This document shows positions 3,332 through 9,808 of a stretch of DNA of 39,605 nt, piece after piece. Origin of the DNA: a virus; the IMG/VR virus record IMGVR_UViG_3300025121_000009; one strand, given 5' to 3'. A model generated the notes under the pieces. It saw only the letters and a list, made by a program, of their open reading frames with translations, ran no database searches and was not told the DNA's origin. Both the position numbers and the translations under genes were made by a program. Positions within the stretch are counted from its first letter, which is position 1. Each line of letters opens with the position of its first letter.

Positions 3332-3700
3332 TTAATCAATATCATCTTTAACAAATCCTGATATATCTATTGTAATCTCTGGTCTTCCCTCTTGATTAAC
3401 AATTATTGATAAACTACTAGAATAATACCCATTTTGAGAATTGTAACAAGGTACTGCATAAGTACCATTCAACACTATTCCTAATAACGGATTGCCTGTT
3501 ATTCTAATCTTCCTAAACTCCTCTTCCATTATTCCTGTATCCGATAACTGCTCCCAGTCTGCATACACATACTCACAGCAGTCTTGGTCATGGTAATCGG
3601 TTATTTTTGTACCATCACTAAACTCTAAACCCTCTTTGTCAAGCTTAATTAGCTTAACTGGTTTATCAAACTCAATTGTAAATATTCTCTTCTCTTCCAT
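3332..3700 (-). CDS. Hypothetical protein (122 aa) immediately downstream of rtcB
   Basis: Contains the motif HDQDCCEYVYADWEQL. It shares the same 16-nt upstream box as rtcB, at the same distance from the ATG. Function unknown. Confidence 0.55.
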   Translation of the reverse strand: MEEKRIFTIEFDKPVKLIKLDKEGLEFSDGTKITDYHDQDCCEYVYADWEQLSDTGIMEEEFRKIRITGNPLLGIVLNGTYAVPCYNSQNGYYSSSLSIIVNQEGRPEITIDISGFVKDDID

Positions 3701-3709
3701 TCTCTGTAA

Positions 3710-3725
3710 TGATTAAATTAAACTA
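3710..3725 (-). promoter_or_regulatory. Conserved box TAGTTTAATTTAATCA, 25 nt (box start to ATG) upstream of gene 3332..3700
   Basis: 16-nt exact match with 4914-4929. Confidence 0.4.
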
Positions 3726-4904
3726 ACCTTTAACAACAGCTAGCGGCTTTAACTCTACCAGTATCTTTGTTAAATCTTTCTGGTTTTCCATAACAACATC
3801 TATATCCTTATATGCTTGAGGAGCTTCTCCAAAGTCTAGATTACCTTTTCTATCCTTTCCCCACCTACCGTATACAACCCCCTCCATAGATTTGTCTGCC
3901 TCTTCTAGAGTTATGTTTCTACTTGCTTCCATTCTACCCATTTTCCTACCCGCTCCGTGTGAACAACTCATAAAGGATTGAACATTTCCCAGTCCCTCTG
4001 TTATATAGGACTTAGTACCCATAGACCCTGGAATAATTCCAACCTCTCCTAGCCTTGCACTTGTAGCACCTTTTCTATGAACCCATACATTCCTACCCAT
4101 GTGGTTTTCCAGTCTTGCGTAGTTGTGTGCTATGTTAATTATCTCTTCTGCTTTATAATCGCCAAGAGTATCAGCTACAACACCCATGACCCTCTCCATC
4201 ATCAGTTTCCTATTCGCAAATGCAAAGTCCACACAATACTGCATTTCCTGTATATAATCTTGACCCTCTTTAGTGTCGGTAGGTAGATATGCTAAGTCTT
4301 GTTCTACAACATTTGGTATATACCACTTCTTAGCTAATTCAATAGCTTTTGCATTGTAGTAATCACACACTTGCTTACCAAGATTTCTACTACCAGAATG
4401 TATCATTATCCACAATTCACCCTCGCTACTTCTTTGTAGTTCTATAAAGTGATTACCACCACCAAGCGTTCCTATTTGTGTAAGGGCGTTGTCATACTCC
4501 TGAGCTACAACGACACCATTAGCACTTTTGCTATTACTAAATGGCATTAGGCTCTCCTCTTGTTTCTTCTGGTGGTGTGCAAACCCAACTGGTACAACCT
4601 TTCTTATTCCACCCAATGTTTCTTTTAATTGTTCCTGCGTAATATCCTCTGTTTTTATATGAGTATTAACTACACACATACCACAACCTATATCTACGCC
4701 CACCATATTAGGGCTAATAACATCAGCAAGAGCTACAACCCCACCAATAGGCATTCCGTACCCTTGATGACTATCTGGCATTACTGCAACCCACTTGTAT
4801 ACAAAAGGTAGGTTAGCAATATTTTTAATCTGCTCCATAGCACCATCCTCGATATCTTCTAACCATAGTTTTACCTGTATCTTTTCAGTATTTATTTCTT
4901 TCAT
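3723..4904 (-). CDS. rtcB: RtcB-family 3'-phosphate/5'-hydroxyl RNA ligase
   Basis: 393 aa carrying RtcB hallmark blocks: DSHQGYGMPIGGV, GGGNHFIELQ, IHSGSRNLG, AHNY, HRKGAT, IIPGSMG and SCSHGAGR. Confidence 0.9.
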   Translation of the reverse strand: MKEINTEKIQVKLWLEDIEDGAMEQIKNIANLPFVYKWVAVMPDSHQGYGMPIGGVVALADVISPNMVGVDIGCGMCVVNTHIKTEDITQEQLKETLGGIRKVVPVGFAHHQKKQEESLMPFSNSKSANGVVVAQEYDNALTQIGTLGGGNHFIELQRSSEGELWIMIHSGSRNLGKQVCDYYNAKAIELAKKWYIPNVVEQDLAYLPTDTKEGQDYIQEMQYCVDFAFANRKLMMERVMGVVADTLGDYKAEEIINIAHNYARLENHMGRNVWVHRKGATSARLGEVGIIPGSMGTKSYITEGLGNVQSFMSCSHGAGRKMGRMEASRNITLEEADKSMEGVVYGRWGKDRKGNLDFGEAPQAYKDIDVVMENQKDLTKILVELKPLAVVKG

Positions 4905-4913
4905 CTTCTCTTT

Positions 4914-4929
4914 TGATTAAATTAAACTA
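4914..4929 (-). promoter_or_regulatory. Conserved box TAGTTTAATTTAATCA upstream of rtcB, preceded by AAGGAG
   Basis: Exact 16-nt repeat of 3710-3725. The GGAG ends exactly 25 nt before the ATG. Confidence 0.4.
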
Positions 4930-4946
4930 CTCCTTAATAACTCATG

Positions 4947-5211
4947 ACGGACATCCTCTTACTACTTTTTGGTGTGCTTCTTCCAAAAGGGTTTAATTAC
5001 TACCCACAAGAAGCGTAGTTACCATTTAGAGGTCTGTCCGTTTGAATTATCAAAGAGCTAATAACCTGTATGAGATACTCTGGGAACTTACTACTGAGTT
5101 GGCAGTGCCGTTCTTCACTGCTTCTTCTAGGATAGTTGTTTCCCTCGCTCTCCATTATGCTACTAAGATGATAGTAAGTCGCACTTCGCATTCTCACCAA
5201 AGTACCTCATA
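4947..5211 (-). ncRNA. Candidate structured ncRNA made of two adjacent domains, each closed by a long stem; class unknown
   Basis: Domain A (5069-5211): an 11-bp closing helix pairs TATGAGGTACT with AGTATCTCATA. Nested inside are a 9-bp helix (5172-5180 with 5085-5093) and the hairpin GCAGTG/CACTGC (5102-5121). Domain B (4947-5041): ACGGACA..CCTCT pairs with AGAGG..TGTCCGT. Nested inside are GCTTCTT/AAGAAGC and GGGT/ACCC. The region has no convincing CDS. Confidence 0.4.
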
Positions 5212-5310
5212 CAAATTATTAAAAGAACTGGTAGGTGCAACTGTTTTATTCTTAGTATTCAACAGAACCCAACAAATCTTTGTTGTAGCCTTTATTTAAC
5301 ACCCACCATA

Positions 5311-5382
5311 TTGCAGGGGTTAGAATTGAACTAACTACTCTTAGGCTATGAACCTAAAGTGCAACCGTTACACTTCCCTGCG
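5311..5382 (-). tRNA. tRNA with CAU anticodon (Met; initiator-like C1xA72 mismatch; Ile2 not excluded)
   Basis: A hand fold gives a full cloverleaf. Acceptor CGCAGGG/CCCTGCA with C1 opposite A72. D arm GTGT-AACGGTT-GCAC. Anticodon arm TTAGG-TTCATAG-CCTAA. Variable loop GAGTA. T arm GTTAG-TTCAATT-CTAAC. Discriminator A. No CCA is encoded. Confidence 0.8.
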
Positions 5383-5485
5383 ATGTTACCTGTGCCTTAG
5401 CTCCAGACTTAGCGTGGTGTCGTTTAAGAATTGCTATAATTAAATGTCCACATCCAGAACCAGGGTACAAGTAACACCCTAATTT

Positions 5486-6633: not shown

Positions 6634-7083
6634 TTATAATTTGTTAAAGTAATCTGTTAAACCCAATATCCTAGCTCCTGCCTTATCAACAGGGTTGCCA
6701 TAGGTGTCTAAGTCTACCCACTTAAAATCTAGGTCGTAGAGAAACCTACCTATACCCCACTTAACAGCAGCTCTCTTAAAGGAATCACTAAACTCCCCCT
6801 TTTCTCCCTCAAATGGACTTGGTACCCCAGTGTCTTCTTTTGCTACCCACTCCCCACCTATTCTCAACTCAAGTTTACAAATAAGACTACCCTCTCTTCT
6901 GTAACTATCCCTCCAGTTTTCTATTCCAACTGCTCGGTCCAGTAAGTCCATAACATCTCTTGCGTCTATGTAAGCAACACATTGTGCTTTCTTTCCGTCT
7001 TTAGCTTTGCTTTGTATCTTCCACTTGTATGGAATTGCATAAGTAAGCTTTTCGGTTAATGTATATTCTTTTTTATTTTCCAT
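6634..7083 (-). CDS. Rad52/Sak-like single-strand annealing protein
   Basis: The block FSDSFKRAAVKWGIGRFLY with upstream ENWRDSY..L.L.IGGEW matches the Rad52/Rad22-type phage SSAP signature. Confidence 0.6.
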   Translation of the reverse strand: MENKKEYTLTEKLTYAIPYKWKIQSKAKDGKKAQCVAYIDARDVMDLLDRAVGIENWRDSYRREGSLICKLELRIGGEWVAKEDTGVPSPFEGEKGEFSDSFKRAAVKWGIGRFLYDLDFKWVDLDTYGNPVDKAGARILGLTDYFNKL

Positions 7084-7100
7084 CCTCTTGGTAATAAAAA

Positions 7101-7292
7101 TTATCTAACTATCTTGTAAACACGATTTAACATTTCTATTAAATCAAATAGATCATCAGCTGTTAGTGATAACCTAACCCCACCAAAGTCTATTGTGAAA
7201 TGCTTAAACCCCCTATCAACTACAAGTGTGAGTTCATCTCCGCCATACCTATTTTGTAGTATGATGGTCTTACTTTGTACTTGTTCTTTCAT
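7101..7292 (-). CDS. Hypothetical protein (63 aa)
   Basis: ORF downstream of the promoter at 7326-7354. Confidence 0.5.
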   Translation of the reverse strand: MKEQVQSKTIILQNRYGGDELTLVVDRGFKHFTIDFGGVRLSLTADDLFDLIEMLNRVYKIVR

Positions 7293-9082: not shown

Positions 9083-9343
9083 TTAAATTGGATTACCATA
9101 ATTATCAGACACCTTTAAGCCCCACTTTGCGTTATACTTCCTATGGCACTCTAAACACCAACCTACACAATTATCTTTTGTGTTTTTCCCTCCCTTACAT
9201 TTTGGTTTTTTGTGATGGATTGTTAAGTTCCTTTCGTGGTATTTTCTACCGCAACATAAACAGATACAATCTTGAGATACCTTAATTTCGTGTTTCCAGT
9301 CTAGCTTGGGTTCTCGTTGAACGTGCGTTTTGTGTTTGGACAC
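9083..9343 (-). CDS. HNH endonuclease
   Basis: Motif CLCCGRKYHERNLTIHHKKPKCKGGKNTKDNCVGWCLECH. GTG start preceded by ACGAGGTG. Confidence 0.75.
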   Translation of the reverse strand: MSKHKTHVQREPKLDWKHEIKVSQDCICLCCGRKYHERNLTIHHKKPKCKGGKNTKDNCVGWCLECHRKYNAKWGLKVSDNYGNPI

Positions 9344-9524: not shown

Positions 9525-9808
9525 TTCCAATCTCCTTTTTAAAGAACTTGAGGTATTACCTCTTGAGGCTCAGAATTGAACACTCAACAGAGTTGGTAAT
9601 GGCGCAGTAAGTCCTAGTTGTAGTCTACAAGATTGAGTGTGCTAGTTATGTGTATTACCAACCCTATTAAGTTTTCAACGAGCCTTAAACACCTTCCTGT
9701 CTTTAAACTCCGATTTTTTCCCAGGGTTCCATTGGCTAATGGGTCTAATGTAACCCACTATTCTTGAATAAACCTCACATCTTTGTCTTGTTATCATGTT
9801 TCTATGTC

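Follow-up and report, generated by a model that had tools for sequence, protein, structure and literature searches.

RtcB ligases join RNA ends that carry a 2',3'-cyclic phosphate (or a 3'-phosphate) to 5'-OH ends in a GTP- and Mn-dependent reaction, and the breaks that they seal are made in transfer RNA (tRNA) and ribosomal RNA (rRNA) by metal-independent host ribotoxins and anticodon nucleases. RNase III processing stems are a second familiar system and include the leader-trailer helices around 16S and 23S rRNA and the intergenic sites of phage T7. A survey of jumbo phages already treats phage RtcB as a tRNA-repair ligase that accompanies phage tRNAs, the published rationale being the resealing of tRNAs cut by metal-independent RNases (PMC7824862). 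YrlA, a small RNA of the bacterial rsr-yrlBA-rtcBA locus, has a Ro-binding stem with the motif GNCGAAN0-1G and a permuted order of T-arm, closed acceptor stem-loop and D-arm (PMC4201824). In T4, the small stable RNAs RNAC and RNAD come from the phage tRNA region and have no assigned roles (PMC3014915), and PeSL cassettes are promoter/stem-loop elements that mediate modular shuffling in T4-type phages (PMC2839356, PMC4122927). Here we describe an intergenic island in IMGVR_UViG_3300025121_000009, a viral sequence of 39,605 nucleotides (nt) that is referred to in its entirety as the window: upstream of an rtcB gene, a tRNA(CAU) gene is chained with several structured RNA modules. These modules are RNA structures under selection, with conserved frames and swapped interiors (heads), many of which are tRNA-like.

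The gap between rtcB and the tRNA (4905..5309) is strongly structured. In the sense (minus-strand) orientation it folds at -128.9 kcal/mol with a z-score (z) of -6.8, and none of 100 shuffled sequences folds as well; z ranges from -6.8 to -7.5 across folds of this strand and is -3.6 for the antisense strand. The first-pass annotation, made from the sequence alone, had placed a tRNA about 400 nt from rtcB with two long-stem RNA domains between them. The tRNA lies 405 nt from the rtcB start codon and the strong structure is borne out, but the gap holds three closed domains (X, S1 and S2), and a fourth (M0) precedes the tRNA. M0, the tRNA, X, S1 and S2 fill a 581-nt intergenic region and thus form a chain of five end-paired units with short linkers (Table 1).

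Exact and gapped pattern scans of IMG/VR and JGI metagenomes recovered the closing helix (the frame) of S1 from the window and from 14 contigs of uncultured phages (L numbers), in 13 distinct copies altogether. The carriers are the window, L001/L156, L044, L046/L154, L174, L175, L176, L177, L178, L179 (the same as L002, with L003 alike), L180, L190/191, L192 and L193. When the interior is replaced by GAAA and the 26-base pair (bp) helix is counted over the 13 frames, 93.2% of cells are paired, versus 34–46% in slid controls. In seven of the 26 pairs both partners have changed, a level of covariation that none of 500 shuffles reaches. The inner 14 bp, two wobble pairs included, are invariant in the 13 copies, and it is the outer pairs that covary. 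The strands differ by transitions, which leave 3–10 G-U pairs per helix in the sense RNA but would give A-C mismatches in the antisense RNA, and a covariance model of the frame scores 51–63 bits on sense copies versus 20–32 bits on antisense. The sense-only G-U pairs and the covariance scores therefore indicate selection on an RNA helix and not on a DNA palindrome.

Across the copies, the frame helix is 24–35 bp long and the interior measures 32, 88–113 or 146–158 nt. Interiors are not alignable between copies, except for the heads of L174 and L175 and the mini heads of L179 and L180, and MAFFT alignment of the cargos fails beyond their tRNA-like ends. The frame covariance model recovers copies with a cargo of up to 88 nt and misses long-cargo copies; run on other rtcB loci, it gave nothing new (long-cargo copies escape the model). 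A 17-nt degenerate junction pattern produced approximately 110 matches, nearly all due to chance, and a metagenome scan with a 19-mer returned one further relative and two chance matches. Bacterial and archaeal reference genomes gave only chance matches to the S1 pattern, a result that therefore yields no host clue.

When S1 is numbered as a tRNA, ACUUUGG and CCAGAGU form a 7-bp acceptor stem (A1-U72 to G7-C66) that is followed by U8-G9, and the leader-trailer pairing runs outwards from position -1:73. The interiors of L001, L154, L174/175, L177, L178 and L192 end in a T-stem of 5–6 bp and a canonical 7-nt T-loop (UUCAAAU, UUUGAAU or UGCAAAU) abutting C66, and a D-arm-like hairpin after UG or AG opens the interior in most T-arm-bearing copies. 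Features of a tRNA-like domain (7-bp acceptor, U8-R9, D-arm hairpin and abutting T-arm) can be traced in these same carriers but not in all copies. D- and T-arms are lacking in the heads of the window, L176 and L190 and in the two 32-nt mini copies, as determined by an arm scan. Between the D- and T-arms, no standard anticodon arm can be drawn for most heads. Rfam scans of the window and 34 related loci, run at gathering and at permissive thresholds (E≤1 and E≤10), returned only tRNAs and one transfer-messenger RNA (tmRNA); the S1 heads do not match the tRNA model RF00005 at either permissive threshold, nor does ARAGORN call them by default. With lowered thresholds and introns allowed, ARAGORN makes many implausible calls and a single coherent one, which reads the L154 head as a tRNA whose anticodon loop is interrupted by 39 inserted nt. 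The L001 head has its D-loop (AAUAGGUAGAC) and T-arm in common with a free-standing tRNA-Leu-like gene just upstream of the L154 S1. Judged by these sequence features, S1 is best described as a putative tRNA-derived module in which the acceptor helix is much lengthened and the head can be exchanged, and the window head has lost the tRNA-like arms. A different reading of the T-arm and acceptor strand, as an attP copy of a tRNA 3' end, was set aside, since conservation is just as high in the complementary 5' strand and the window open reading frames (ORFs) scanned for domains (those from approximately 60 amino acids [aa] upwards, with two smaller ones added) revealed no integrase.

The island occurs independently of rtcB, and RtcB is probably one optional cargo gene rather than a partner of the RNAs. 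Only 2 of the 13 S1 copies, those of the window and L001/L156, adjoin rtcB. Other genes lie downstream of the island in L044, L154, L174, L175, L176, L177, L180, L190, L192 and L193, and the genes that follow it are unrelated to each other (rtcB, a 70-aa ORF, an MDKIEK-family gene and others). The L002 contig contains two S1 copies in different intergenic spaces, with rtcB 2.4 kilobases (kb) from one of them and on the opposite strand. Neither patterns nor the covariance model found an S1 adjoining rtcB at the rtcB loci outside the window and L001/L156. In L174 and L175 the island follows a homologue of the 231-aa gene that lies upstream of it in the window, with other genes downstream; the island is therefore anchored to that gene and not to rtcB. 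The exchange of parts is also evident between close relatives: L001 shares with the window an identical tRNA(CAU) and the same S1 strands, but its S1 interior is wholly different, X is missing, and its S2 helix is built from different complementary sequences. The window and L044 have little in common besides near-identical patches of 30–50 nt at gene borders. Directly after the island, and in the S1-sense orientation, L177 (6688-7434) and L190/L191 carry ORFs that consist mostly of tandem N-T-G-x-x pentapeptide-like repeats.

Table 1. Features of the island and the adjoining genes in the window.
Feature	Position	Strand	Basis or remarks
M0, stem domain closed by end pairing, located after the stop codon of the preceding 231-aa gene and before the tRNA	5384..5476	-	Minimum free energy -30.5 kcal/mol, z -3.25, 0/200 shuffles as good
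tRNA-Met(CAT), anticodon CAU	5310..5383	-	ARAGORN; Rfam RF00005, 47.7 bits
Module X, three-way junction with 9-10 bp closing helix	5229..5308	-	Fold
S1, whole module	5058-5222	-	Fold
S1 frame, 5' strand UUAAUAAUUUGUAUGAGGUACUUUGG	5197..5222	-	26 bp with 5058-5083
S1 cargo (window-specific interior), 113 nt	5084..5196	-	Arm scan; no Rfam match at E≤10
S1 frame, 3' strand CCAGAGUAUCUCAUACAGGUUAUUAG	5058..5083	-	Pairs with the 5' strand
S2, ~27-bp helix (15 + 7 + 5) around a 68-nt interior	4930..5057	-	Fold
Gene-start box TAGTTTAATTTAATCA, upstream of rtcB	4914-4929	-	Exact repeat
rtcB, RNA 3'-phosphate/2',3'-cyclic-phosphate to 5'-OH ligase	3723..4904	-	393 aa; Pfam, PHROG, motif alignment
Gene-start box TAGTTTAATTTAATCA, second copy, overlapping the rtcB stop codon	3710-3725	-	Exact repeat
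122-aa DUF7448 protein	3332..3700	-	PF24240, 33.6 bits

The remaining modules also recur in relatives. M0 is approximately 90% identical to its L001 counterpart. Homologues of X lie directly upstream of S1 in L180 and L192, and the three sequences share 24 consensus pairs, 4 of which show compensatory changes. The base of S2, in which CUCUUU pairs with AAGGAG, belongs to a basal helix that is kept in four lineages (the window, L001, L044 and L154); the inner helices have been replaced wholesale, with sequences that are unrelated between lineages and pairing that is retained. An island-start hairpin motif, CCCTG(A/G)TTCTGGAT...ATCTGGG...AGGAATAG, is present at 5462-5480 of the window and upstream of S1 in L174, L176, L177 and L190, and may be homologous to M0. 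In L044, the place of the tRNA upstream of S1 is occupied by approximately 230 nt of G+C-rich, moderately structured sequence (6972-7200, minus strand; z -2.8) that starts with the frame motif GCTCTTTAAAA and has no Rfam match.

The window RtcB matches the full length of PF01139 (model positions 1–426 of 426; 390.9 bits; E 1.2e-116) as well as PHROG 1075, "tRNA splicing ligase". All of its metal/GMP blocks align with those of Pyrococcus horikoshii RtcB: MPDSH (D44, H46), DIGCG (D71, C74), GNHF (N151, H152), HSGSR (H169), AHN (H260) and SHGAGR (H316). The corresponding metal ligands and guanylylated histidine of the P. horikoshii enzyme are D65, H67, D95, C98, N202, H203, H234, H329 and H404. 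The first-pass identification of RtcB from its signature His/Cys blocks is thus corroborated by ligands that align with those of solved RtcBs, and by its residues the enzyme looks catalytically competent. No TROVE/Ro60, archease, RtcA, Pnkp, Rnl or splicing-endonuclease domain was found in the scanned window ORFs, in agreement with the first-pass annotation, which had recognized no Pnkp, Rnl, archease or Ro60 homologue.

Homologues of rtcB occur in 708 GenBank phage records. We collected 43 related rtcB loci from IMG/VR and scanned 38 of these for tRNAs; in 10 of the 38, rtcB and a tRNA are no more than 100 nt apart. Seven of these 10 adjacent tRNAs are tRNA-Pro(UGG), found in L001, L002, L003, L005, L007, L009 and L023, and the RtcBs of these loci are 57–95% identical to that of the window. 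This pattern suggests that rtcB and tRNA-Pro are a conserved pair that has been lost in the window, where DUF7448 (see below) has taken the slot. One related locus has rtcB inside an array of 23 tRNAs. The adjacency is not universal, as the cultured RtcB phages PHB04 and ANB28 have no tRNA near rtcB. Non-coding gaps at the rtcB loci L005 and L019 show moderate structure only, unrelated to that of the window. L015 carries a phage-borne tmRNA (1953-2300) approximately 700 nt upstream of its rtcB homologue.

The tRNA(CAU) of the window resembles a bacterial initiator at its acceptor end (CGCAGGG...CCCUGCA-A), with a C1xA72 mismatch followed by G2:C71, C3:G70 and A73; the 1:72 non-pair is also flagged in the Rfam alignment. 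CCA is not encoded. The anticodon stem (UUAGG/CCUAA) lacks the initiator signature, having G30:C40 and G31:C39 only of the three G:C pairs expected at 29-31:39-41, pair 11:24 is U:A and not the initiator A11:U24, and position 8 is A. Since the anticodon-stem and 11:24 features are absent, we limit the label to an initiator-type acceptor end and claim no role in initiation.

The first-pass annotation proposed a combined repair-and-replace counter-defence module comprising the ligase, the tRNA, the structured RNAs and the 122-aa protein. For the ligase and tRNA the proposal is reasonable and matches a previously published reading, since RtcB is apparently intact and tRNA adjacency recurs in relatives; for the RNAs and the 122-aa protein as parts of it there is no support. 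The first-pass annotation had also noted an upstream box shared by rtcB and the gene after it. A 16-nt box does precede both genes, but the box and its start region (family D2) precede four genes in the first 10 kb (1418, 3688, 4892 and 8319), and the box is also found ahead of other genes in L001 and L044. It is a generic gene-start element and makes no private link between the two genes.

The 122-aa protein has 34 homologues. In an alignment of 31 sequences (the window protein and 30 of the 34), H37, D40, C42, E43, C85, Y86, Q89, G91, Y92 and Y93 are invariant and C41, N87, N90, S94 and S95 nearly so, giving the motifs H-x2-D-x-C-E and C-Y-x2-Q-x-G-Y-Y. An AlphaFold2 model is all-beta and confident (predicted local distance difference test, pLDDT, 88.9) and has no PDB match with E<0.4. 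We considered whether the protein could be an archease and rejected this identity: Pfam gives DUF7448 only, and as the model matches nothing in the PDB it is therefore not an archease. DUF7448 may be a small metal-binding fold that is so far undescribed. Nor does DUF7448 travel with RtcB. Four distant homologues whose genomic context was checked lie in phage early regions with no RtcB nearby, none of the other rtcB loci encodes a DUF7448 homologue, and the closest relative, L001 (RtcB 95% identical), has tRNA-Pro in the slot of the 122-aa gene. The protein is an accessory gene ("moron") unrelated to RtcB.

For the locus as a whole, we incline, with a confidence slightly above even, to a stable-RNA island in which the tRNA and RtcB form a translation-maintenance pair and the modules are an independent, modular and co-transcribed family of small RNAs. 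Most likely, the units of the island are transcribed together and processed into stable RNAs, and RtcB is one of its optional residents. The initiator-type tRNA(CAU) and RtcB would then be a conventional translation-maintenance pair, and the island would be transcribed together with its neighbours. The helices of 24–35 bp would serve as processing or stability signals that are cut by an RNase III-type enzyme, after which the tRNA-like heads would be trimmed by RNase P and RNase Z-type enzymes, yielding stable small RNAs and separating the tRNA from the rtcB mRNA. The near-identical frames may double as recombination joints at which heads and neighbour genes (rtcB, DUF7448, tRNA-Pro) are swapped. 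A scan with sigma-70 and terminator consensus patterns gave nothing beyond shuffle expectation, but the sigma-70 consensus may not be that of the host.

Several points weigh against this reading. The predicted RNase III/P/Z processing draws solely on helix length and tRNA-like geometry, and extended leader-trailer pairing is expected to hinder RNase P. The head in the window has no convincing D-arm or T-arm. The invariant 14-bp core points to sequence-specific recognition by a specific reader, because plain double-stranded RNA could covary freely, and our reading names no such factor; the census of 13 S1 copies, being based on exact-pattern scans of public collections, is itself biased towards unchanged cores. 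Finally, rtcB directly follows S2 in both rtcB-bearing lineages, and a local functional link between rtcB and S2 in these two lineages is conceivable.

Among the alternatives, it is unlikely that S1 and S2 form a cis-regulatory leader, acting as an attenuator or translational switch for the downstream gene through, for example, the AAGGAG hidden in the S2 base. The pairing of CUCUUU with AAGGAG agrees with such a role, as does the position of the module, whose end invariably falls shortly before a gene start. However, AAGGAG lies 26–31 nt upstream of the ATG and is therefore too distant to be its Shine-Dalgarno sequence, and the downstream genes are unrelated. Chained modules with interiors swapped wholesale are unexpected for a leader that senses a ligand or factor, and the tRNA-like heads indicate stand-alone RNAs.

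We regard as rather improbable the proposal that M0, X, S1 and S2 constitute a new class of phage small RNAs: tRNA mimics with an acceptor that continues as an invariant helix, which a specific factor recognizes, and with heads that are cassette-swapped under diversifying selection. If they do, the RNAs may act as decoys against immunity that targets tRNAs, or an RtcB-type ligase (that of the phage here and that of the host elsewhere) may re-seal or circularise them after a cut in the frame.

There is a slim chance that the long-stem RNAs, called accessory RNAs in the first-pass annotation, are dedicated to RtcB, whether as scaffold, guide, decoy or substrate, in the manner of YrlA and YrlB between rsr and rtcB in Salmonella. 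In the window and in L001/L156, rtcB is immediately preceded by two or three long-stem RNAs, an arrangement superficially like rsr-yrlBA-rtcBA, and the heads of some relatives are tRNA-like, as is YrlA (PMC4201824). This proposal is contradicted by the 11 of 13 S1 copies that have no adjacent rtcB and by the other rtcB loci, which have no S1. Moreover, no TROVE/Ro60 gene was found in the window, no Rfam family matches the modules even at E≤10, and the architecture is unlike that of YrlA, with the order D...T and a long helix that prolongs an open acceptor stem.

Similarly doubtful is the view that S1 and S2 are mobile palindromes at the DNA level, comparable to miniature inverted-repeat transposable elements (MITEs), repetitive extragenic palindromic (REP) elements or the Correia/nemis repeats of Neisseria, with the arms as terminal inverted repeats and transcription as incidental. 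Conserved ends resembling inverted repeats, a variable interior, intergenic sites, two copies on one contig and the existence of a 32-nt "empty" version all fit this view. The arm transitions do not, as they give G-U pairs on the coding-sense strand only, nor do the covarying outer pairs; interiors are unrelated between copies, in contrast to the homogeneous families formed by MITEs, no transposase was found in the window, and the reference genomes searched with the S1 pattern held chance matches only. That the S1 heads are intron-bearing tRNA genes, whose splicing ends (2',3'-cyclic phosphate and 5'-OH) are sealed by the phage RtcB, is scarcely credible: RtcB is the tRNA-splicing ligase of archaea and animals and the relaxed ARAGORN call on the L154 head would fit, but most heads have no drawable anticodon stem-loop, the Rfam tRNA model is silent at E≤1, the scanned window ORFs have no splicing-endonuclease domain, and most of the head-carrying phages show no rtcB in the retrieved flanks.

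The source of the window is an uncultured podovirus-like groundwater phage with a small genome of approximately 39.6 kb. The window represents all or most of a phage genome, and every convincing gene is on the minus strand; these include genes for a terminase, a portal protein, a major head protein, an SU10-type adaptor, a tail fibre, endolysin-like peptidases, Erf/Rad52 and a DnaD-like loader. The same phage is carried by 22 assembled contigs, groundwater metagenome assemblies among them. The capsid protein is at most 35% identical to any GenBank phage counterpart, and a blastn search of GenBank phages gave no match to the intergenic region.

Further features were observed elsewhere in the window. 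Positions 1-130 and 1629-1758 form a 130-nt direct repeat (99% identity, spacing 1628 nt), and near it (1930-2988) lies a small paralogous family of early genes with MKKIEK/MDKIEK N-termini and a common NQSQK motif; related copies of this family are present in L044 and L154. A 40-aa ORF (9675-9797, minus strand) matches only the glycyl-radical C-terminus of the anaerobic ribonucleotide reductase NrdD, a stretch of its final ~32 residues (PF13597 positions 531-562 of 562; 40.6 bits; E 1.7e-10), with no other part of NrdD detected in the window, and an HNH endonuclease ORF (9083-9343) follows approximately 330 nt downstream. The 40-aa ORF could encode a stand-alone "spare-part" glycyl-radical peptide or be a remnant. 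A second intergenic space contains an end-paired RNA module (~9582-9672, minus strand) with a 19-bp closing helix and z -3.0, followed by GTTCTTTAAAA and then a Shine-Dalgarno sequence.

The ligase and tRNA add one more small-phage example to a known counter-defence theme. What is new is a small-RNA framework that is absent from Rfam, is found in at least 13 distinct copies, has interiors that are tRNA-like in most relatives and is chained with tRNAs in one intergenic island; it constitutes an unclassified and modular RNA family, tRNA-like in part, that is borne by a clade of uncultured phages. Should the RNAs prove to be expressed and processed, small phages would carry diversified tRNA mimics, and conserved RNA helices would serve as joints of genome mosaicism. 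The locus also cautions that the neighbour of a repair enzyme is not automatically its partner.

Compared with the described phage RtcB systems (PMC7824862), the window ligase belongs to the same family, has the same catalytic residues and, in 10 of 38 related loci, has counterparts among or beside tRNAs. It differs from those systems in that its phage has a genome of only ~39.6 kb, in which no healing enzymes or second ligase were found, and from its own relatives in that the adjacent tRNA is initiator-type, whereas seven relatives have tRNA-Pro(UGG). The island RNAs resemble YrlA and YrlB of rsr-yrlBA-rtcBA (PMC4201824; PMC7790460) as small RNAs that are encoded just upstream of rtcB and have a long terminal helix and, in many copies, a tRNA-like domain. 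In contrast to these, the island has no Ro60 gene, no GNCGAAN0-1G motif and no Rfam match, and its RNAs mostly occur without rtcB; its arms are unpermuted (D...T), and its long helix is a continuation of the acceptor, not a substitute for the anticodon stem. We rejected a Y RNA identity for the island RNAs on gene content (no Ro60 found) and architecture.

RNAC and RNAD of T4 (PMC3014915) offer what is probably the nearest functional analogy, as non-tRNA RNAs within a phage tRNA island. The island RNAs differ in having a conserved long frame helix and exchangeable heads, and a sequence relationship with RNAC and RNAD is not expected. Like RNase III processing stems, the frames are long helices formed by sequences that flank a structured RNA in what is predicted to be a polycistronic transcript, although cleavage in the island is putative and the invariant 14-bp core suggests a sequence-specific recognition that RNase III does not need. 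The closest evolutionary match is the PeSL cassette. PeSLs are terminator-promoter units of ~50–60 nt around protein genes, whereas the island frames are RNA helices of 24–35 bp around RNA cargo; both are short conserved intergenic stem-loops that border variable inserts and persist where the neighbouring genes differ.

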